Below are positions 1,583-42,840 of a stretch of 64,000 nucleotides of DNA, in pieces. Within the stretch, counting starts at the first letter, position 1, and each line of letters begins with the position of its first letter. The position numbers and the translations under genes were made by a program. Source of the stretch: Pleurocapsa minor GSE-CHR-MK 17-07R (GTDB lineage Bacteria; Chloroflexota; Anaerolineae; Aggregatilineales; Phototrophicaceae); assembly GCA_019359125.1 (NCBI GenBank), contig JAHHHY010000006.1:210030-274029 (forward strand). Direction: 5' to 3'. The notes beneath the pieces were generated by a model that worked only from the letters and a program-made list of their open reading frames with translations, was not told the origin of the DNA and did no database searches.

Positions 1583-2632
1583 TCAGCCCAGACGCTGCGT
1601 CATGCCCGTGCAGCTGGATTCGTGTGCGGCGGCCATGATCTGAATCTGCGCGATCAACTCGGACGCCTGCACGGGCGGGGGTGCGCCCGCGGTGATGGCC
1701 TGATGCACGGCCTGCCAGTACAGCCGCCAGTCGCCGGGCAGCGTCTCGACCGTGCTTTGCGACGGCTGGGGCTCGCCCGTGTCCAGATACAACTTCCCCC
1801 AATTTTCGGGCGCATCCTGTCCCCACGACGCATCGGCTGGCGACTGTTCGGCGCGCAGCAGGCCTTCCTGCGGGTCCAGCCCAAACTTGATAAACGCGCC
1901 TTTCAGCCCGCGCACGGCAAAACGCGGCACCGGATACGGGTTCAGGTTGTCGGCCTCCAGCAGCACATACAGGCCGTCGGCATAGCCCAGATGCAGGCGG
2001 AACATATCGTCCACGGCGATGACGCCGCGATTGGCGGCAATCTGCGCGGTCACGGTCTGCGGCATGCCGAATAATTGCAGCGTGTGGTCGATCAGGTGCG
2101 GCCCCAGGTCATAGAAGATGCCACCCTGTTCCTCGGCGGATTCGCGCCACACGCCGCGCGGACGGGGCCGATACATCGGCCAGTGCGACTCGAAATGGTG
2201 GATGCGCCCCAGCGTCCCGGCAGCGATAAGCTGCTGCACCGTGCGGAAGTCGCCATCGAAGCGGCGCTGCTGATAGGGGATGAGCTGCCTGCCGGCAGAC
2301 CGGGCGCGCTCGATCAGCATCCGCAGCTCGTCCAGCGACTGCGTGACCGGCTTTTCGACCACGACATGCTTGCCAGCCTCCAGCGCGGCCAGCGCCTGCG
2401 CCACATGAAAGCGATGCGGCGTGGTGATCACGATCAGGTCGATGTCCGGCCGAGCGATGACCTCGTCATAGGATGCGGACACGGCGGCATCCGGGAAGTG
2501 TGCCTTCACCTGGTCGGCGCGGCTGGTGGCGACCGCGGCCAGCGTGAAGCCCCCGACGGCGCGCAGGAACGGCGCATGCAGATAACGCCCGGCCAGCCCG
2601 TATCCCAGCAGTCCCACGCGAATGTTGTCCAT
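1583..2632 (-). CDS. Gfo/Idh/MocA family oxidoreductase
   Basis: GLLGYGLAG Rossmann motif, HVVVEKP, YQQRRFDGDF, GGIFYDLGPHLID. Confidence 0.9.
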   Translation of the reverse strand: MDNIRVGLLGYGLAGRYLHAPFLRAVGGFTLAAVATSRADQVKAHFPDAAVSASYDEVIARPDIDLIVITTPHRFHVAQALAALEAGKHVVVEKPVTQSLDELRMLIERARSAGRQLIPYQQRRFDGDFRTVQQLIAAGTLGRIHHFESHWPMYRPRPRGVWRESAEEQGGIFYDLGPHLIDHTLQLFGMPQTVTAQIAANRGVIAVDDMFRLHLGYADGLYVLLEADNLNPYPVPRFAVRGLKGAFIKFGLDPQEGLLRAEQSPADASWGQDAPENWGKLYLDTGEPQPSQSTVETLPGDWRLYWQAVHQAITAGAPPPVQASELIAQIQIMAAAHESSCTGMTQRLG

Positions 2633-2675
2633 CGTCCGCTTTCACCTTTTCGTTTGCGCACATACCGACGACTGT

Positions 2676-2722
2676 ACCACCGTCCGCGCCGCTGCCGCCA
2701 CCGTCACGCCGGGTGGTGCACA
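2676..2722. repeat. Direct repeat A1 (47 bp), partner at 4720-4767
   Basis: ACCACCGTCCGCGCCGCTGCCGCCACCG-TCACGCCGGGTGGTGCACA; 42 of 48 aligned columns identical to the copy at 4720. Confidence 0.85.
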
Positions 2723-2770
2723 GCACGGCGCTGGAAGGGTGAGATAAGCTCGAGTGTTTCTGCTGTCAAC

Positions 2771-4654
2771 TCAGTGAAGCAGCCCCCAATTGACGGGCGT
2801 ATCCGGCTTCTCCGTCGGGAAGTCGTACAGGGCAGATTCAGCACGAGGTGGCAGCGACTCGCCCACTCCCGTGATGGACGCCGGCTCATAACCCGCAGCA
2901 GGGACGGGAAGCTGTTCAAGCAAGCGTGGGCCCTGTTCCTCGTCGAATGTGAACACAACCAGATTCTGGTAGGGGATGGTGCGCTCACTGAGTACAAACT
3001 TCGTCCATCGGGTATAGAAGCCGTTTTCAGTGAACGCACATGCTTCGCGGAAGTAGCCGAACGTTTCGGCTCCTGGCACGCAGAACGCGGCGTCCAGGGT
3101 CGGGTTGGCGTACAGATAGCGCACCGCGCCGATCAACATGTCACGGCGATTCTCAAACTCCAGCATTGCACGGCGCTCGGGCGATTCATCCAGCAGCACG
3201 ATCAGTGTGCCATCAGCCGGGCGCGGAGCCTGTTCGATAATTGCGCTGAGTATCCAGTGCTGGCCGCGAGGTGCTTCAGCGTAGAGACTATGCTGCCAAA
3301 GCGTGAATGAGGCGTGCCCACCCATCAGTACACCGAACCCCAGCAGGAACAACCAGCGGGTAGAGACAAAGAGGGCTAACAGGCCGCCAAGTACGAGGGC
3401 CAGCTTGCCTAGGCGCGGAGCAATAATGAGAGCAACGATCAGCGCGCCAGCGGCTGTCGCACGGCGCACCCACTTGCCGCCATAGCTGACGATAAGGAGT
3501 GCCATGCCGAAGACGAGCGCGCTGCCCGCCGCCGAGAAGTAGTAAACGCGGTAATCGACATCACGGTACTCACTGACAAGGTAGCCTGCAAAACCCAGCC
3601 CGATGAGCGCGAACCCGGCGAGGCTCGCCGTGACGACTTCGCGCCAGCGTAGGACGGGAGGCCGCCGACGCAGACTGTACCAGACCGCGCCAACAGACAC
3701 GCCGCTGATGGCGCCGGCATAGGGAAGGAAAGGCAACGTTTCGCGCCAGTAGGTATAGCGGTCGAGAAATGCGCCGCCCAGCAACCGCTTGTAGATGCGG
3801 AACACGCTGTTGGCCATGTCCCGCAGGGGAGACTCAGAAGCAAGCGCTGTGGTGAACTGACCGCTTTGATAGAGCTGGTTTTGCGTCGCCACAACAATAC
3901 CATAGCGGGCAAGCAGAATTATGGGGACGACATACCACAGACCTGCTGTTATCCAGACGCGGCGGTTGAAGCGGCCTGCAATCAGGGGGAGCAGCATCGG
4001 CGCCGCAAAGATGATAGGGAACGCAGCCTCATAGGTCATTGCTAAAGCCTGTGAGATGCCTACCGCGACCCACAGCCAACGTGCCGGACGACGAAACTGC
4101 CGTAGGAATAGCCAGATAGCCACAAACGTCCACAGCCCTGACCACGCGATGCTATGGGTTCCTAACCAGAACCAGCCTAGATCTGCATAGAAGACCGTGT
4201 AGAGTAAAGCTGAGGCCGAAGCGACTACACGCGCGGAGGGAAGCAGTTCACCGATGACGAGATAAAGCGCGAAGCCTCGTGCCAGTAGCAGCGCGGCAAA
4301 GACGAGGTTGATACCCACGTGTGAGTCGGGAGTGAGCAGGTAGCCCAGATGTTGAAACGCGGTGACGAAGGGGCGGAGGCTGCTTGGATCGAGTGAGATA
4401 TTGCTTCCAACAAAATCACCTAGTAGAACCCATTCATCACTTAGACCTGACACATTCCAGCCAAAGGGCAGCCAGAGCAGGACAATCACGGCGCTGAGGG
4501 CTGCGAGGGTAATCAGGTCTAGCTGGTGGACGGATGCCCAAACACGAATACGAGGCATCAGGCCATGGTACATCTGATGAATTACGTTAGACACAACACC
4601 CACACAAAATATTCTAAACATTGCCTGAAATAATACACGTAGCTTAGCTAGCAA
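2771..4654 (-). CDS. Polytopic membrane protein with C-terminal extracytoplasmic domain, GT-C/GtrII-like glycosyltransferase candidate
   Basis: About 12 hydrophobic segments, early SGLSDEW acidic loop, soluble C-terminal domain. Visibly lower GC than neighbours. Start uncertain (later ATGs possible). Confidence 0.6.
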   Translation of the reverse strand: MLAKLRVLFQAMFRIFCVGVVSNVIHQMYHGLMPRIRVWASVHQLDLITLAALSAVIVLLWLPFGWNVSGLSDEWVLLGDFVGSNISLDPSSLRPFVTAFQHLGYLLTPDSHVGINLVFAALLLARGFALYLVIGELLPSARVVASASALLYTVFYADLGWFWLGTHSIAWSGLWTFVAIWLFLRQFRRPARWLWVAVGISQALAMTYEAAFPIIFAAPMLLPLIAGRFNRRVWITAGLWYVVPIILLARYGIVVATQNQLYQSGQFTTALASESPLRDMANSVFRIYKRLLGGAFLDRYTYWRETLPFLPYAGAISGVSVGAVWYSLRRRPPVLRWREVVTASLAGFALIGLGFAGYLVSEYRDVDYRVYYFSAAGSALVFGMALLIVSYGGKWVRRATAAGALIVALIIAPRLGKLALVLGGLLALFVSTRWLFLLGFGVLMGGHASFTLWQHSLYAEAPRGQHWILSAIIEQAPRPADGTLIVLLDESPERRAMLEFENRRDMLIGAVRYLYANPTLDAAFCVPGAETFGYFREACAFTENGFYTRWTKFVLSERTIPYQNLVVFTFDEEQGPRLLEQLPVPAAGYEPASITGVGESLPPRAESALYDFPTEKPDTPVNWGLLH

Positions 4655-10974: not shown

Positions 10975-11445
10975 CCGGGACAGCCTGTATGCCGTATTGA
11001 TGGCCGAGCGTGCGCTGATGGGCATGGCCGGCGCGCCCTAGCGCCTGGCGGATGCCCTCAGCAATCCATACGCCGTCATTGCCCGCAGGAGCAGGCCGAA
11101 ACGCGCCCGTGTCAGGCCACAGCGATCCGCAAAGCGCCACCTCCCGGTACATACACGACATAGGCCAGAGGCCAGACAAGCCACAGCGTCCGGCTATTTT
11201 TGTCGTGCTTTGCGCGTCACAGTGCCGCATATCCCCTTGCTAACGGGCCGCAAGACGGCCCATCGGCCGGAAAAGTTATGTGAAATTCGTACTGCAACCT
11301 CAGCTGAATCCTCGCAACAACCGAATGTAACCGGCCTGTTTGTGAATGCTGTAAATAAATTAATGATTTTTGCTGAAAACTGCGACATCTCCCCGAAAAC
11401 CCCGCTTTAACCATTAGGCATATAGTAGAAAGTTGGGTAATCGCT

Positions 11446-12051
11446 TTGAAAAAGCGCGATGTTGCCTTTTTGTCGTTTGGGGCAGTGCTCGGTTTGGCAG
11501 CTGGATTGATCCTGCTGACCAGCCCTGACTTGCAGCGCTCACTGTCTGGCACGGCCATGGGCATCGATGCACAGCCGGCTTATCTGATCGTGGATAACGA
11601 GCAGGCACAGCAGTGGCTGCTGTCAGTTTATCCCGATGACGAACAGGCCATCCTTTCGGCGTTTGCCAATGCGGGTCGCCTGGCCACGACGACCACCTTT
11701 CCTGAGACATTCCGCGAAGTGGAAGCCGATATCAATCAGTTGTCAGACCGCGCTTTTGCGGCGCTGACCGGACGTCTGCCCGATGCAGATGCCGAGCCGT
11801 CGTTTGCGCTGCCGGATGCGCTGCTGACGGATACGGCGGCTGGAGACATCATGTCGTGTGTGGGGCTGGATGAAAACCCGTACAACTTCGATGGCTACAG
11901 CCTTGAGCTTTATATGGAGATTCCGTCCACACAGCTGGTGAATCTGCCATCTGGGTGGGCGACACATGACGATCCAATGAGCCGGAGTCTTTTCTGGCAG
12001 CGGCTGGCATGCCACGCGCTGACAGGGGACATGGGGGAGAGGAGCCGTTAG
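11446..12051 (+). CDS. Hypothetical exported or membrane-anchored protein
   Basis: N-terminal hydrophobic segment; TTG start; directly upstream of and co-directional with the giant gene. Confidence 0.65.
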   Translation: MKKRDVAFLSFGAVLGLAAGLILLTSPDLQRSLSGTAMGIDAQPAYLIVDNEQAQQWLLSVYPDDEQAILSAFANAGRLATTTTFPETFREVEADINQLSDRAFAALTGRLPDADAEPSFALPDALLTDTAAGDIMSCVGLDENPYNFDGYSLELYMEIPSTQLVNLPSGWATHDDPMSRSLFWQRLACHALTGDMGERSR

Positions 12052-12116
12052 CCTATGGCATGATGCAACAACATTCGGCGTTCTCATCTGGATCCATGCG
12101 TTAGGAGAAAAGTTTT

Positions 12117-15100
12117 ATGAAACGAAATGGGCTTAACAGGCAAGTGATAATGATCGCAGGCATCACCCTTGTGGTGCTGGTGGTTGGCGCGATCATTTTG
12201 TCCAGTGCCATCTCAGGTGGCAGCCTGTCGGGCTCTGGTGTTGAAGGTGAACAGATTGCTGAAGTGCCTTCCGCTACCCCTGAACCGCCGACGCCGGAAC
12301 CCCCGCCGCCGGACTCAGACGGGGATGGTACTCCGGATAATCAGGATGCATGTCCGAACGACGGCTTCCACGATGGTGTAGGCGACCCCTGCAACCACGA
12401 TGAAGACGGCGACGGCGTGCGCGACGATGTCGATAGCTGCCCGACCGAATCCGGCAGTGCGCCGAATGGCTGCGTTCCTACCCCGGAACCGCCGACGGCC
12501 ACCCCGGTGCCCCCGACATCGACTCCTGTGCCCCCGACAGCAACCCCTGTCCCGCCAACTGAAACGCCAGTGCCTCCAACGGCAACAGATGTACCTCCTA
12601 CTGAAACAGCGGTTCCTCCGACGGAAGCTGCGACGCTCGAAAACACCGCAACGGAGACCCCTGGTCGCCCCGACCAGCCTACTCCTGAAACGACGGATGA
12701 GTCGTTAAGTCCGGTTGTTCAAACCGGCCCGACCAATACTCCGACGAATACGCCTGTTGCGGCCACTTCGAGCCCGACGTCGACCAGCACAGGTGGTAAC
12801 TGCCGTGGTGGTACGGATGAGTGGGACTGCACGTCCATTGAAGTCAGCGGTCAGTGCGCCGAAGGTGTGCCGTCCTTTACCGTCAACGAAACTGGCGGCG
12901 ATAACAACATGGACGGCCCGGTTGCGTGGCGTCTGACCCTGAATGGCAACCTTGTTGAGTCTGGTACGCTCCAGCTCAATGCTGGTCAGTCGTTATCGCT
13001 CCAGTTCCCGCAGGTTGCGGGTTCGACTGGCAATTTGCGTCTGCAAGTCGATCAGCGTCCGGGTCACCCGGGCAGCAGCCAGCCACAGGCCAGCTTCTCT
13101 GTGCCGTGCGCGGGTGCTGACTCCCCGACTCCGACGAATACGTCGACGATCGCTGCGACGAATACGCAGACGATTGTGGCCACAAACACGTCGACCGAGA
13201 CGCCGACCGAGACGCCGACCGAAACAGCGACGATTACGCCGACTGAGACGCCGACGGTGACGACTACCTCGACGGTGACTTCGACGGTGACATCAACGCC
13301 GACGGTGACAGTCACCGGCACCCGGTCATCGACGCCGGTTCAGCCGGTTGGCCGCATCAACCTGTCGCATCACTATTGCGTCGCCGGCAGCAACCCGGCC
13401 GATCCGCAGCTGGAAGTCCACTTTGTGGTCACCCAGTCAGGGACTGCCAACTTTGGCACGCTGACGTATGTGATCAACGGGCAGACCCGCTCGATCGGTC
13501 CGTCTGGCCGCACCGGCGGCACCACGCACTACTATGACTACATTTCGCTGGGGCCTGTGGGCACCACGTGGACGGTGGAATCGGGCAGTGTCGTGATCAA
13601 TGGCGCGACCTATGCGGTGCAGAACCTGCCGCAGTCGTACACGTCGCAGGCCGGATGCTATCCGACGGTGCCGACGAGCACGCCGACGACCGCGCCCACA
13701 AATACGCGTACCTCGACGACTGCGCCCACCAACACGCCCGCGAATACGGCGACCAATACGGTGACGCGCACGCCTTCGAACACGCCGACGGTGACCAACA
13801 CGGCCACCAGCACGTCGACGAACACGGCGACCAATACACCGTCGGCGACCAACACGCGTACGAGCACAGCCACCAATACCCCGACGGTGACGAATACGCC
13901 GACGGTGACGAATACGCCGGACACGCGCTTCCTGACGATCTGCCATGTGGCAGGCCGTGCCGAAGACCCGGCCAACTGGGTCGTGCTGACGCTGCCGTAT
14001 CAGGCCGTGTATGCCAATGCGCAGGGCAACGGTGGTCACTTCTTCGAAAACGGCACCCCGCTGGCAGGCCACGAACAGGACTTCATCATCAATGGTCCTG
14101 AAGACCTGGCACGCTGCGCGCCGCCCGCGACCGCCACGCCGACGGAAACGCCGACAGATGTTCCGACGAACACGCTGACGCCGTCGAATACGCCGACCGG
14201 CACCGTGCCGCCGACGGAAACGCCGACGAATACGCCAACGGATGTTCCGACGAATACGCTGACGCCGACTGCGACCGAAGACCCGCGCTTCCTGACGATC
14301 TGCCATGTGGCAGGCCGTGCAGAAGACCCGGCCAACTGGGTCATCCTGACGCTGCCGTATCAGGCAGTGTATGCCAACGCGCAGGGCAATGGCGGCCACT
14401 TCTTCGAGAACGGGACACCGCTGGCGGGCCACGAACAGGACTTCATCATCAATAGTCCTGCCGACTACGCACGCTGCGCCCCGCCGACACCGCAGCCGAC
14501 GGAAACGCCGACCAACACGTCGACGAGCACGCCCAGCAATACGCCGACGAACACGCCGACGAACACCGCGACCAACACGCCGACGAATACGTCCACCGTG
14601 ACGAATACGCCGACGAACACGGCCACGAATACGCCGACGAATACGCGCACGTCGACCAATACGCCGACGAATACGCCGACGAATACGCCGACAGCGACCA
14701 ACACGCCGACGAATACGGCGACGCCGGACACGCGCTTCGTGACGATCTGCCATGTGGCGGGCCGTGCGGATGACCCGGCCAACTGGGTCGTGCTGACGCT
14801 GCCGTACCAGGCAGTGTATGCCAACGCGCAGGGCAACGGTGGTCACTTCTTCGAAAACGGGACGCCGCTGGCCGGCCACGAACAGGACTTCATCATCAAT
14901 GGTCCTGAAGACCTGGCACGCTGCGCGCCGCCCGCGACGCTGACCCCGACGCCGACGGAAACGCCGACGAGCACGCTGACGAATACGCCGACGAACACGC
15001 TCACCCCGTCGACTACCCCGACCGGCACGCAAACGCCGTCGAACACGCCGACTGAGACGCTGACGCCGACCAATACGCCGACGAACACGCCGACGAATAC

Positions 15101-38572: not shown

Positions 38573-38950
38573 TTACAGGGAAAGCGGGACGTCGAGGCGC
38601 ATCCAGGTGCGGGCGATGCGGAAGATCGTCCCCGGACGCAGGCTGACTTTGCCGCGAATGGTCTTTTTATCGCGCTCGATGAAAGTGCCGTTGCGGCTGT
38701 TCAGGTCTTCCAGCCAGAACGACATCACGTAGGGCTCGGCCACGCTTTCGCTGCTGGTGATGGTTTCGATGTGGCAGCCCAGCCGCGCATGCAGGCGTGA
38801 CACCTGATTGTCGAACGGCAGGTGGATATCGCAGCCATCGCGCCGGCCGATGGTGAGCACCAGCTCCTCGGAAGGCTCTGGCTGTTCAAATCGGAGCGTC
38901 TTGCCGTCCAGCGGGCCGCTCATGAATGTGATCGAGATTTCCTTGTTCAT
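38573..38950 (-). CDS. FHA domain protein
   Basis: TIGRRDGCD, VSRLHA, LEDLNSRNGT. Confidence 0.9.
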   Translation of the reverse strand: MNKEISITFMSGPLDGKTLRFEQPEPSEELVLTIGRRDGCDIHLPFDNQVSRLHARLGCHIETITSSESVAEPYVMSFWLEDLNSRNGTFIERDKKTIRGKVSLRPGTIFRIARTWMRLDVPLSL

Positions 38951-39043: not shown

Positions 39044-39550
39044 TCAGGACATCTCCAGCGCGAACAGGCCCAGCGGCACGCTGCCGAAGGTTGCGGTGCT
39101 GCTTCCGACGCGCCACTGCAATTTGACGGTATGCGCCCCGGCGGCCAGCGCGCGCACGCCGACGAAGCACACGGCGCTGTGCTCTCCCGCCGTGCCGGTG
39201 GTGACATGCACGCTGCCGGCCGAGACGCCGCTGATGCGCGCGCCGTCCAGCAGCAGGTCGAAGTAGCAGTTCACGCCGCCAGCCGCCGCGCTGACGCTGC
39301 CCGAAAAGCCGAATAATACAGGCGCGCCGGTCGTCGTCAGCGCGAGGGACAGATTGGTCGCGTCGACATCGACAAACGAGGTGCTGGAGGTGCTGTAGCT
39401 GGCGACGCTGAGGGCGGATGCGCTGGCTGCTGGCGTCTCGACGCGGGCTTTGAGATGCTCCAGATTATCGCGCAGGTGGGTGTTCATCAGCGTGCTGGTG
39501 ACGACTTCGCCGGTCGTCCATGTGCGTGGTGCGGTCCAGATATCGGGCAT
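39044..39550 (-). CDS. Phage tail-associated-like small protein
   Basis: WTAPRTWTTGEVVTSTLMNTHLRDNL N-terminus followed by a beta-sandwich-like region; RBS AAGGAG. Confidence 0.6.
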   Translation of the reverse strand: MPDIWTAPRTWTTGEVVTSTLMNTHLRDNLEHLKARVETPAASASALSVASYSTSSTSFVDVDATNLSLALTTTGAPVLFGFSGSVSAAAGGVNCYFDLLLDGARISGVSAGSVHVTTGTAGEHSAVCFVGVRALAAGAHTVKLQWRVGSSTATFGSVPLGLFALEMS

Positions 39551-39569
39551 GGGAAGCTCCTTAAGGGAA

Positions 39570-39639
39570 AGTGCTGAGTACTGAGTGCTGAGTGCTGAGT
39601 GATGCGTGACGAGTAATAAGTAATGAGTAATGCGTAAGG
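39570..39639. repeat. Degenerate 7-bp tandem repeat (AGTGCTG, about 10 units)
   Basis: AGTGCTG AGTACTG AGTGCTG AGTGCTG AGTGATG CGTGACG AGTAATA AGTAATG AGTAATG CGTAAGG. Confidence 0.85.
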
Positions 39640-39646
39640 GATAAGG

Positions 39647-41107
39647 TCAAATGGCGAGTGCGGTGCGGGCGTCGAGGGCGCCGCTGCCCAGCACCCAGAA
39701 CGCCGTATCATCGGCGCGCATCAGCGTGAAGGTGAGGCGATGGCGCGTCCCCGCCAGATCGACCGTATGCGCCTCGCCCAGCACGCGGTAGTGCGCGCTG
39801 TGCCCGGTGTGCGCTTCGCTGATGGCGATGATGTCCATCAGGCTGACGGCCAGCGCGGACGGGTGATCGCGCAGGTCGAGCGTCACCGATGTCGTGCTGA
39901 GGACAGGATCGCCGCCGCGCCCGACTTCAAAGCGCGCCAGCTCGGCCGCTTCGTCGGCGTCGGCCAGCAGCGGCAGCTCCAGCGACAGGGCGTGCAGGCC
40001 GTAGCGCGTGATCGCCTCCTGGTCTTCATGGCTGACGCGCAGGCGTCCATCGCTGATGACGGGCGTCCCGACGACCTGCGCGCCTGCCTGAATCCAGGCT
40101 GTCACGGCGGACGGATTGCTGAAACTGACGACTGCGCCGGAGGCCAATGTATCGGTGATGCTGCCCGCCACGCTGACCAGTCCGCCGCCTGCTGGCTGTG
40201 TCCGCGCTGTGAACGACAGCATAGCCGCGTCGGCGCAACCCACCGCGTCGCCGTCCTCGTCGCGAAAGGCGATGCGCACGGTCACGGTCGCGCGGGCAGG
40301 GACGCGTAACGGGGTATTTAACGTCCATAACGGTGTATCGTCCGGCCCCAGCCGACGCGGCACACAGGTGATGCTCGCCTGATTGACCGCCGGTGCCTGC
40401 TCCAGCGCCAGCGCGGCCATGTCGTCGGACAGGCTGAGCGCAGGCGTTCCAGACAGCAGCAGCGCATGCCGGTTGACGAAGACCAGCCCGCCAGACCGGT
40501 CGGCGAAGCACAGGCCGCGCTCCGCTGACACTACCTGCGCCAGCACGGCGTCAGCGCGCGCGTCCGGGTCAAACACGGCGTAGCGAAAGGCCGAGATGCC
40601 CGGCTGGGCGTCCAGCGCGATCGGCAGGTCATCGGCGATGCGGGCCAGCCCCAGCACGCCAAAGGCCGACGAGCCGATCACCATACACTGGGACAGGGCG
40701 CGCCGTCGCAGGCCAGACCCGGCCAGCAGCGCCCGCAGAATGGCATCGGCGGGCTGATCCACCAGCGGCGGCAGGTCGGCGCGTGCCCCGGACAGGCCAA
40801 TGTCCGCCGTGCGGGCGATTACTATGGCCTGTCGCCTGCCCTGCGCCCCGGCATCCGGCCGGATGTGCGTCACAAGGCCGGTGAACAGAACCTCGTCGCG
40901 CCCGCCAGACAGCGCGCTGATGCGCATGAAGCGCCCGGCCCACGATGCCCCGCTGACGGCTCCATCGGCATTGTCCAGCGTGAGCGTCGCCTCGCCCGGC
41001 GAAGTCACGCCCAGCTGCCAACTTGCCGACAGCACACGCGCGGTGATGTGTTCGCTGAAGCTATCGTCCTCCGCGCTGTCGATGGCGACGGTGTAAATCG
41101 ATGTCAT
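39647..41107 (-). CDS. Phage tail/hub-like protein (putative)
   Basis: Beta-rich; GEATLTLDNADG, LAQVVSAERGLCFADRSGGLVF; RBS AGGAGG 22 bp after the TerL stop. The family call is an inference. Confidence 0.5.
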   Translation of the reverse strand: MTSIYTVAIDSAEDDSFSEHITARVLSASWQLGVTSPGEATLTLDNADGAVSGASWAGRFMRISALSGGRDEVLFTGLVTHIRPDAGAQGRRQAIVIARTADIGLSGARADLPPLVDQPADAILRALLAGSGLRRRALSQCMVIGSSAFGVLGLARIADDLPIALDAQPGISAFRYAVFDPDARADAVLAQVVSAERGLCFADRSGGLVFVNRHALLLSGTPALSLSDDMAALALEQAPAVNQASITCVPRRLGPDDTPLWTLNTPLRVPARATVTVRIAFRDEDGDAVGCADAAMLSFTARTQPAGGGLVSVAGSITDTLASGAVVSFSNPSAVTAWIQAGAQVVGTPVISDGRLRVSHEDQEAITRYGLHALSLELPLLADADEAAELARFEVGRGGDPVLSTTSVTLDLRDHPSALAVSLMDIIAISEAHTGHSAHYRVLGEAHTVDLAGTRHRLTFTLMRADDTAFWVLGSGALDARTALAI

Positions 41108-41129
41108 CGGCGTATGCCCTCCTGTGCAT

Positions 41130-42338
41130 TTATTCCCAGCCAATCATGCTGTTGCCCCCTGCGCGCACGCCGTGCCACGCCAGCGCCAGGCTGATGACCA
41201 TGTCGTCATGCAGGCCGGGCGGCGCGCTGAAACGCAGTCCTCCCCCGGGCAGGCGCGCCAGGGTGTAGGCGGCCAGCTCGGCCAGCAGCGCGTCCCCGTG
41301 CGCGTCGCCGGGCATGGGCAGGCGGATGTCCCCGCGCTCGATTGCCAGCGCCAGCGCTTCAATCAGCGGCGTCTTGCTGGCGGCGGTCATGCTGAACGGG
41401 CGCACAGGCAGACCCTCTGCCTGAAGCGCCTCGATATTGGCGCCCCCGATGCTGTTTTCCTCGGCCCATACCAGGGCGGGGGCCCAGCGCGCACACAGCG
41501 CCGCGATGCGCCCGCGCTGCAGCGCCCAACCCACTTTGTTGAAGCGGTCGAGCGCGACCACCTCGCGGGTGACGCTGTCGATCAGCGTGAAGACGGTGAA
41601 GTCGTGGCTGCGGCCCCAGTCGATACCGCCGACGTATAAGCGCCCGGCGACCGGCTCGGCATGCAGCGGCGCGGTTGCGGTTTCACGGATGCCCCGGAAA
41701 ACCGCCCCGTCATCATCGATGAATTCGGCCAGATATTCGGCGCGGAACACGCGGTCCTGCGTGACCGCCCGGATGGCGTCGATTTCGGCGCGCGGGATGA
41801 GCGGATTGTCGTAGCTGCTGAACTGGAACGACGCCCAGTCCGGATGCGCCGCGTCCTGACCGAGCTGATACACCTCCCAGAACCAGTTACGGCCGTAGGG
41901 CGTGGACAAAAACAGCGCCGCGCCGCCGCGGTCGGCCAGCATCGGCCGGATGACCTCCGGCCAGGTATCCGGCGTCATGAAGGCGGCCTCGTCCAGCACG
42001 ACGAAATCCAGCCCCGCGCCGCGCAGGTTTTCGGGATGGTGCGCGCTGCGGATGGCGATGAAGCCGCCGTTGGGTAGCTCCAGGCGCATCTCCTGCGTGT
42101 TGACTTCCACGCCGTGCAGGCTGCGACACGCCCGTTTCAGGTCGCGCCACACCTGCGAGGCCATGCGGTAGGTGGGCGACACCCACCACACCGCGCCACC
42201 GCGCAGCGCCGCCTCAAGGCTCGTCCATTTCCCCAGCTCGGTTTTGCCGAAGCGGCGTCCGCAGGCGACGACCCGAAAACGCGCCTTCGACGCCATGATC
42301 TTCCGCTGACCACGGTGGGGCGTCATGGATAGTGCCAT
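41130..42338 (-). CDS. Phage terminase large subunit (Terminase_6 plus RNase H-like nuclease)
   Basis: PHRGQ, CGRRFGKTE (Walker A), LRGAGLDFVVLDEAAF (Walker B), LSTPYGRNWF, GIDWG, HDDMVISLALA. Confidence 0.92.
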   Translation of the reverse strand: MALSMTPHRGQRKIMASKARFRVVACGRRFGKTELGKWTSLEAALRGGAVWWVSPTYRMASQVWRDLKRACRSLHGVEVNTQEMRLELPNGGFIAIRSAHHPENLRGAGLDFVVLDEAAFMTPDTWPEVIRPMLADRGGAALFLSTPYGRNWFWEVYQLGQDAAHPDWASFQFSSYDNPLIPRAEIDAIRAVTQDRVFRAEYLAEFIDDDGAVFRGIRETATAPLHAEPVAGRLYVGGIDWGRSHDFTVFTLIDSVTREVVALDRFNKVGWALQRGRIAALCARWAPALVWAEENSIGGANIEALQAEGLPVRPFSMTAASKTPLIEALALAIERGDIRLPMPGDAHGDALLAELAAYTLARLPGGGLRFSAPPGLHDDMVISLALAWHGVRAGGNSMIGWE

Positions 42339-42561
42339 CGGGATACTGGTATTCGATGCGGACGGCCTGCGTTTCTTCGCTGCTGTCATGCGGCCTCCAG
42401 TCACTCAGGCGGATCAGCCGGTCGATGACCACGCCCAGCGCCGCCGCCCGTTCGCGCAGCGAGGCCTCCTCAATCGCGTCGTCCAGGCCGTCGGCCAGCA
42501 GCTGTGCATTGCGCAGAAGGCGCCCACGCAGGGTGGCCAGCAGGTCATCAGGTTCGTGCAT
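42214..42561 (-). CDS. Small helical protein, positional terminase small subunit candidate
   Basis: RBS AGGAG; helical N-terminus; 3' end overlaps TerL by about 125 bp. Confidence 0.6.
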   Translation of the reverse strand: MHEPDDLLATLRGRLLRNAQLLADGLDDAIEEASLRERAAALGVVIDRLIRLSDWRPHDSSEETQAVRIEYQYPDGTIHDAPPWSAEDHGVEGAFSGRRLRTPLRQNRAGEMDEP

Positions 42562-42840
42562 GGCGGTATCTCCTGGTGTGCGAACGATTTTTGTGGAACA
42601 ACAGGCTATCCCGCGCCTCGCCATACGGCTGCTGGCGGAACACGATTGCGGGCGGGTGGGCCACGGCAGAGAATCGTCCGCGGCGCGGGTCAGCCACGTG
42701 TTTAATTTAGCTCAATTGTTCTAATTTGAGGTGGAAAAACAGTCGGAAATATGGTCAGAAATCTGGAACGTGCCAGGCGCGTGAGGTTTGCGTAGAAGCT
42801 GTTACAATCAGGCGCATGTTTGTCTTTACAGATGTGAGCC

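Follow-up and report, generated by a model that had tools for sequence, protein, structure and literature searches.

What is a terminase doing among ordinary host genes in an Anaerolineae genome, without a portal, capsid or integrase beside it? The locus lies at positions 39044-42561 (minus strand) of the window, the 64,000-nucleotide stretch of contig JAHHHY010000006.1 that was analyzed here, and a first-pass annotation from sequence alone had read it as a minimal phage-derived operon, representing either a dispersed gene transfer agent (GTA) or domesticated packaging system, or a decayed prophage. Our results support the former interpretation. The four genes appear to be the DNA-packaging and tail-tip part of a virus-derived particle gene set whose other genes lie elsewhere in the genome, and we consider the set a strong candidate for a GTA-like system, although its function is inferred only, from the genomes of uncultured organisms (all MAGs) and without particle, transcript or packaging data.

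The terminase and tail-tip locus

The four co-directional genes were confirmed, and all four, not only the three checked in the first-pass annotation, are preceded by a ribosome-binding site. The first, p136 (42214-42561, minus strand; 115 aa from the ATG at 42561; AGGAG 8-12 nt upstream of the start), overlaps the start of the large terminase by 176 nt, an arrangement conserved in at least nine loci. Its assignment as a small-terminase (TerS) homologue is supported only transitively, as p136 itself has no Pfam or PHROG hit, while its orthologues in a sister family (f2) hit TerS families phrog_2538 (3.6e-7) and phrog_7344. The HTH-like N-terminus is present in these f2 orthologues and absent here. 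The large terminase, TerL (41130-42389, minus strand; 419 aa; GGAGG), is the only copy in the genome and matches phrog_2 (E 4e-43) and PF03237 (1e-10), with hits covering residues 25-413. It retains Walker A (GRRFGKT), Walker B (VVLDE) and the nuclease Asp motifs (GIDWG, HDDMV), which are conserved in the orthologue from genome G024, and its orthologues are 64-70% identical within the genus and 48-56% identical in other families. Apparent TGA/TAG stops inside the TerL of G024 and of a further genome, G038, lie at alignment edges and are not disruptions.

For the two remaining genes, Pfam and PHROG scans found nothing, and their tail-like character was instead established from predicted folds. 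Specifically, p498 (39647-41107, minus strand; 486 aa; AGGAGG) is predicted to adopt the baseplate/tail-tip hub fold of gp27, Mu gp44, VgrG and siphovirus Tal proteins (AF2 pLDDT 95, pTM 0.92). Foldseek against PDB found hub proteins at E 1e-13 and prob 1.0 (3cdd, 1wru, 7aef_q and 7b5h_AJ), with a target-normalised TM of 0.68-0.72 for 3cdd and 1wru and 0.43-0.44 for the longer CIS chains, and BFVD hits were siphovirus minor tail/Tal proteins, with a best TM of 0.85. A word-indexed homologue search returned only 2-3 hits for p498, even with a profile, whereas an exhaustive search yielded a family of 1034 representative clusters. The last gene, p168 (39044-39550, minus strand; AAGGAG), is predicted to form an N-terminal helix and a TNF/C1q-like jelly-roll knob (AF2 pLDDT 91), for which Foldseek found the BC2L-C and PLTL lectins, the cyanophage A-1(L) short-fibre CBD and the Sf6 needle knob. 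It lies next to p498 orthologues in most relatives and is probably a trimeric receptor-binding tip that sits on the hub. The p498-p168 spacer holds an array of about nine 7-nt repeats (39570-39637) of unknown function, which is the least conserved stretch against the sister contig (L034; 73% identity with 11 gap positions).

The composition of the four genes is host-like, with a GC3 of 0.71-0.85 (0.82-0.85 for the three larger genes), relative to 0.80-0.90 in the flanks, which are an FHA gene and a Mur-ligase (folC-like) gene. Portal, capsid, protease, tape measure and integrase are indeed absent from this locus, as the first-pass annotation stated. However, the FHA-tail-terL-folC synteny holds only for the nearest sister, and two other genomes, G019 and G014, carry the same four-gene module in other contexts.

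Dispersed head genes, inheritance and a shared upstream element

Using the contiguous cluster of genome G025 as a guide for tblastn, we found the head and neck genes elsewhere in the genome studied here (G000), once each on other contigs and set directly among host genes. They comprise a portal (contig C16:16045-17238; PF04860), a fused S78 prohead-protease/HK97 capsid protein (contig C3:10951-12768; PF04586+PF05065, the only PF05065 gene in the genome), and, at a separate C3 locus (2563-3874), a head-tail adaptor plus the 150-aa neck protein p145. For p145 there is only a weak tail-terminator hint (E 0.0017), and a p145 profile against PDB sequences found nothing. The portal of G000 carries one in-frame TAG at a conserved His, leaving an open frame of 290 aa, relative to 416-527 aa in relatives, whose portals are intact. 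The system may thus have been inactivated recently in this genome, or the base call may be wrong. In the 2-contig genome G155, the two halves of the set lie 671 kb apart on one contig, and in another genome, G186, the set is spread over six contigs. No integrase or replication genes adjoin any locus, and no holin, endolysin or dedicated regulator was identified.

The cluster is not strain-specific. It was found in 9 of 12 genomes of one RpoB clade of the genus, in other genera of the family and in four other families of the order, and across the genus genomes the presence of TerL, p498, p168, capsid and portal is all-or-none. On the RpoB tree, every carrier falls in one 12-genome clade (SH-aLRT 90), and the three non-carriers inside it form one subclade (97), such that only one loss is needed within the genus. 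The TerL tree recovers host families (f1 100/100, f2 99/97, f6 100/99). Nor is the locus evolving neutrally: against the 93%-identical sister contig, omega is 0.14 for TerL, 0.19 for p498, 0.13 for p168 and 0.13 for p136 outside its overlap with TerL (inside which dS collapses to 0.03), like the flanking genes, which give 0.04-0.15 at dS 0.14-0.30. Further, orthologues at 50-75% identity remain open reading frames.

An upstream element (42704-42766, minus strand) appears to link the terminase operon to the capsid gene. It consists of three 11-12-nt direct repeats (ATTTCTGAC / ATTTCCGAC / TTTCCACC, 42766-42729), for which TRF reports a period of 12, followed by a LexA-like box, AGAACAATTGAGCT (42722-42709), that abuts a -10-like TAAATT. 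Near-identical copies lie upstream of the capsid gene on C3 and of a p168-type relic on contig C18 and nowhere else in the genome, with the repeat pair occurring exactly 3 times in 4.85 Mb; a fourth TGACC.TATTTCC site, on contig C21, lacks the rest of the element and lies inside coding-like sequence. The repeats are species-specific, whereas the box recurs at both genes in three families, upstream of p136 in 8 of 9 genomes and of the capsid gene in 7 of 7, relative to a background of 0.4% (1 mismatch or fewer) or 4.7% (2 or fewer) per 330 nt. The host lexA and uvrB genes carry AGAAC-N4-GTTC. Nevertheless, the AGAAC-N4-GTGCT box also precedes about 25 other host genes and may partly reflect promoter structure rather than LexA binding, and the portal and adaptor loci lack the shared element. 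Consensus promoter and terminator scans were at chance level, and a sigma-54 reading of TGGCAC in the element was rejected because the -12 element is absent.

A putative domesticated particle system and its alternatives

Taken with moderate confidence, these observations suggest that the locus is one of four loci of a single, non-redundant, phage-derived particle gene set that the host lineage has domesticated, and that is probably SOS-linked. In the working model we infer, the direct repeats (as an activator site) and the LexA-like operator next to the -10 would switch on the terminase operon and the capsid gene together, probably after DNA damage. Procapsids would form on the portal and mature through the fused protease, and TerL would fill them with DNA. 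As its TerS partner has lost its N-terminal, DNA-binding segment, packaging would probably have little sequence specificity. Known GTA TerS proteins lack a DNA-binding domain (PMC11841831). A very short tail of adaptor, p145, a hub trimer and the TNF-like knob would then close the head, with no tube or tape measure. Adaptor, p145, hub and knob are contiguous, with no room for a tube or tape measure, and neither PF10145 nor homologues of the tail proteins of one viral relative, the only tail markers tested, were found in the genome. Divergent tail genes elsewhere are therefore not excluded, and a hub joined to the neck without tube or tape measure is not a documented architecture. Because the genes are spread over the chromosome, such particles would probably be unable to carry their own complete gene set and would carry host DNA, as a GTA does.

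Alternative explanations appear less likely, although not equally so. A domesticated particle kept for a purpose other than gene transfer, such as SOS-triggered lysis with DNA release, a killing or adhesion particle aimed through the knob, or interference with infecting phages by hijacking or poisoning their assembly, would leave the same signatures of domestication, and the minimal tail without obvious DNA-conduit parts and the lectin-like fold of the knob are in line with it. We nonetheless regard it as doubtful, since TerL keeps both ATPase and nuclease motifs and is under selection together with portal and TerS, which argues that DNA is packaged. It is more unlikely still that the genes are the scattered, functionless debris of an old siphovirus-type prophage. 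The TAG in the portal, the missing tube, tape-measure and lysis genes, and the occurrence of related head modules in IMG/VR contigs that carry a tape measure would fit such a remnant, as would the C18 copy of the promoter, which stands before the first 55 codons of a p168-type gene next to IS transposases and is clearly a relic. Against this reading, purifying selection acts on all four genes, every gene other than the portal is intact in more than 15 genomes, the same rearranged TerL-hub-knob module is kept in three species whose RpoB forms a 99% clade, presence is all-or-none, and the upstream element is shared and co-evolves between loci.

An active mobile element, either a temperate phage or a satellite of the capsid-forming PICI type, is very unlikely. 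Sequence relatives of the head module are called viral in IMG/VR, and G019, G014 and G000 carry the four-gene module in different contexts. However, no integrase, replication, repressor or att features lie at any locus, genes up to 671 kb apart on one contig would not excise or be packaged as a unit, the phylogeny tracks the host, and p498 has no match in 50,697 phage records or, by pattern, in IMG/VR.

Comparison with known systems

Experimentally known GTAs come from a handful of lineages, and in the literature searched we found none described for Chloroflexota or Anaerolineae, a phylum that is abundant in sediments, sludge and sponges and is mostly uncultured. It is possible, if tentative, that an order of Anaerolineae carries its own, independently domesticated GTA, built from a siphovirus-type HK97 head with a radically reduced tail, whose genes have become a chromosomal regulon of single-gene loci held together by a dedicated activator site that co-evolves in each species and by an SOS (LexA) operator. 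If the set makes particles, it would add a route of gene exchange for these organisms, and it would represent an unusually small GTA gene set (about 8 genes found here), a natural experiment in how few parts a tailed particle needs, and a clear case of a virus-derived operon dissolving into a host regulon.

The RcGTA-type agents of Alphaproteobacteria (Rhodobacter capsulatus RcGTA and Caulobacter GTA; viriforms) likewise have an HK97-type head (PF04860 portal, S78 protease, PF05065 capsid), a TerS/TerL pair in which TerS lacks a DNA-binding domain (PMC11841831), a hub-type tip protein, and host-owned, vertically inherited genes that are under purifying selection, spread over more than one locus and, as is only inferred here, linked to host stress regulation. 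The set described here differs in its phylum, in the fusion of protease and capsid into one gene, in the apparent absence of tail tube, tape-measure, chaperone or distal tail genes, in its far more extreme dispersal, and in its apparent control by a direct-repeat element plus a LexA-like box, not CtrA/GafA. Lacking the homologous ~15-kb head-tail cluster with tube, tape measure, distal tail and megatron genes, and sharing only generic Pfam families, it does not appear to be a member of the RcGTA-like family (Rhodogtaviriformidae). Other independently derived agents, namely BaGTA of Bartonella, VSH-1 of Brachyspira, Dd1 of Desulfovibrio, VTA of Methanococcus and the Faecalibacterium GTA-like packaging (PMC12946183), show that tailed phages have been domesticated repeatedly into host-DNA-packaging particles, and their putative TerS proteins also lack DNA-binding domains (PMC11841831). 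Those systems have particle or packaging evidence, and their host phylum, gene content and regulation differ.

The same head module also occurs in long-tailed phage-like contigs of IMG/VR (e.g., IMGVR_UViG_3300025327_000057, locus L091), where TerL is 42-51% identical, portal about 40%, the protease-capsid fusion 46-62% and the adaptor 25-35%, in the same order. These contigs have no p145, p498 or p168 homologues, and, in contrast to the dispersed set, they are contiguous and carry an 898-aa tape measure and other tail genes after the adaptor.

Gene content and predicted identities at the locus

The locus comprises four genes on the minus strand of window 39044-42561, each preceded by a Shine-Dalgarno sequence 6-15 nt before its start. 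Specifically, these are p136 (ATG at 42561, 115 aa), TerL (ATG at 42389, 419 aa), p498 (ATG at 41107, 486 aa) and p168 (ATG at 39550, 168 aa). TerL matched phrog_2 (E 4e-43) and PF03237 and keeps Walker A, Walker B and the nuclease aspartates, while the other three genes had no direct Pfam or PHROG hit. The flanks are an FHA-domain gene plus a metallo-beta-lactamase-fold gene on one side and a divergent Mur-ligase (folC-like) gene on the other, and the GC3 of the four genes (0.71-0.85) is like that of the neighbors. No tRNA, integrase or repeat boundary is present. The FHA-domain gene (38573-38950), just downstream of p168, is 100% conserved at the protein level in a sister contig, and its 74%-identical homologue in the relative G024 (contig C34, 14685-15059 of locus L038) lies 1.2 kb upstream of the capsid gene. 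Thus, an FHA gene neighbors the element in two different arrangements, which may point to a functional link or to an ancestral neighborhood.

The identities of the other three genes were inferred from structural models and orthologues. For p498, an exhaustive HMMER search found 1034 representative clusters, and an 80-sequence alignment gave an AlphaFold model with pLDDT 95 and pTM 0.92. Foldseek places this model firmly among baseplate hub proteins, namely Mu gp44, the MuSo2 43-kDa protein, T4 gp27, VgrG and CIS hubs (E about 1e-13, prob 1.0), and among viral models it is closest to siphovirus Tal/minor tail proteins (best TM 0.85). For p168, a 24-sequence alignment gave a model with pLDDT 91, in which an N-terminal helix is followed by a TNF/C1q-like jelly roll that resembles the trimeric BC2L-C and PLTL lectins, a cyanophage short-fibre binding domain and the Sf6 needle knob. 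An array of about nine 7-nt repeats (TGAGTAA / AGTGCTG) fills the spacer between p498 and p168 (39570-39637), which is the least conserved stretch against the sister contig (73% identity, 11 gap positions). Finally, p136 is conserved upstream of, and overlapping, TerL in at least nine loci, and its orthologues in a sister family (f2) hit small-terminase PHROGs (phrog_2538 at 3.6e-7, phrog_7344 at 8e-5). These f2 orthologues carry an extra HTH-like N-terminus of about 45 aa that the versions of genus g1 and family f6 lack. In the 176-nt p136/TerL overlap, dS against the sister contig falls to 0.03 from about 0.2, as expected if both frames are translated.

Dispersal, inheritance and selection of the gene set

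The head genes missing from this locus are found elsewhere in the genome. In the relative G025, one strand carries, in order, p136, TerL and portal; three host-like inserted genes; the protease-capsid fusion, adaptor and p145; and the p498 and p168 homologues. The insertion between portal and capsid gene (11130-14227 of locus L024, G025 contig C20) consists of a TIR-HEAT repeat gene, a HEAT gene and a membrane transporter; a defence-like gene has lodged inside a domesticated phage cluster. Using the G025 proteins as probes, we identified in the genome under study (G000) the protease-capsid fusion at 10951-12768 of contig C3 (56% identity), adaptor and p145 at C3:2563-3874, and the portal at 16045-17238 of contig C16, with Pfam confirming PF04586+PF05065 and PF04860. 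Each gene is single-copy, with one TerL and one PF05065 gene, and each is wedged between ordinary genes: the portal between a PAS-GAF histidine kinase and an ABC-3 permease, the capsid gene between an MFS transporter and a choice-of-anchor-I protein, and the adaptor-p145 pair between an Ada/AraC-MGMT gene and a DUF3352 gene. Notably, the portal has one in-frame TAG in place of a conserved His, while relatives have open portals of 416-527 aa.

The dispersal is real and varies by lineage. The relatives G019 and G014, two Logan contigs and MAG 'CH4' share the p136-TerL-p498-p168 arrangement, although their flanks differ. The public record that holds the G014 module (locus L033, CAZZJW010000031.1) is titled 'uncultured Pleurocapsa sp.', yet it groups with Anaerolineae by RpoB and gene content, and the label is probably wrong. 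By contrast, G024 and G012 keep TerL with the portal on one contig and capsid...adaptor-p145-p498 on another, and G186 spreads the set over six contigs. In the 2-contig genome G155, capsid...adaptor-p145-p498-p168 sits at 2.405-2.414 Mb and portal-TerL at 3.085 Mb of the same contig.

Among 30 genomes of the genus on the RpoB tree, the high-identity set is present or absent as a whole. Every carrier placed on this tree falls in one 12-genome clade, the only non-carriers inside it (G006, G009, G010) form one subclade, and all 18 genomes outside the clade lack the set. G000, G019 and G014, which share the rearranged module, are a 99% RpoB clade and also a TerL clade, and the TerL tree recovers host families f1, f2 and f6 with strong support. 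A 201-genome sample of the class, which held few genomes of the order, revealed the capsid gene only in family f1, while a sample of relatives showed it in four other families of the order.

To assess selection, we used a Logan contig that is 92.9% identical over 12.4 kb and has identical gene order. Nei-Gojobori dN/dS against it gave an omega (95% bootstrap interval) of 0.14 (0.07-0.23) for TerL, 0.19 (0.13-0.26) for p498, 0.13 (0.06-0.24) for p168 and 0.13 (0.02-0.32) for p136 outside the overlap, compared with 0.04-0.15 for seven flanking genes, which were not pooled.

A shared upstream element

Upstream of p136 (window 42766-42704), of the capsid gene and of a third site on contig C18 lies a near-identical element of about 60 nt, composed of three direct repeats at an 11-12-nt period, the box AGAAC-N4-G(T/A/G)(G/T)CT and a -10-like hexamer. 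The repeat pair occurs exactly three times in the genome. The C18 copy (C18:32140-32415) drives only the first ~55 codons of a p168-type gene, the rest of which does not align in any frame, and IS-type transposase genes lie 3-5 kb downstream; it looks like a relic of a duplicated tail-knob gene. The repeats differ between species but agree between the loci of one species, which is what a dedicated regulator co-evolving with its sites would produce.

The box resembles the LexA-type sites of the host at lexA and uvrB. It recurs upstream of p136 in 8 of 9 genomes and of the capsid gene in 7 of 7, across three families, against a background of 0.4% (1 mismatch or fewer) or 4.7% (2 or fewer) per 330-nt window. 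However, the portal and adaptor loci lack the element, and the box also precedes about 25 other host genes, such that SOS control is treated here as an inference. Genome-wide, about 25-30 sites of AGAAC-N4-GT(G/T)CT sit just upstream of genes, including lexA (C11:121208), uvrB (C22:782629), gyrase subunits (gyrB, C22:640843; gyrA-like, C22:39838 and C22:117166), VOC/PhnB-like proteins and a Gp37/Gp68-like gene, with a further example at C23:21343. These form a candidate SOS regulon of this Anaerolineae bacterium that, unusually, includes gyrase.

Tail architecture and interpretation

In every compact version of the set, adaptor, p145, hub and knob abut one another, and family f6 even lacks p145. 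IMG/VR contigs with the same head module (capsid 46-62%, portal about 40% and TerL 42-51% identical) place an 898-aa tape measure after the adaptor and have no p145, p498 or p168. Their tail proteins have no homologue in this genome, and PF10145 is absent from it. These results suggest that the ancestor resembled a long-tailed phage and that the domesticated set has a stub tail or an exchanged tail module, although divergent tube genes elsewhere are not excluded.

The best reading of these observations is a domesticated, co-regulated particle system that may work like a gene transfer agent (GTA), although particle production, random packaging, release and delivery remain inferences. In support, the set is non-redundant, scattered, co-inherited and under selection, has no mobility genes, and its TerS has lost its DNA-binding end, as in known GTAs (PMC11841831). 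It is not a member of the RcGTA family, and we found no description of a GTA in Chloroflexota in the literature searched.

A second, more divergent lineage with the same gene types was observed in genomes G005, G009, G022, G023 and G002 (for example, G009 contig C59, 2599-17895), with identities of 42% for TerL, 48-56% for the protease, about 30% for the capsid, 22-30% for the hub and 33-37% for the knob. Here, about 8 kb separates capsid and hub, which is enough for a full tail, and this lineage may be the true-prophage counterpart or another domesticated set.
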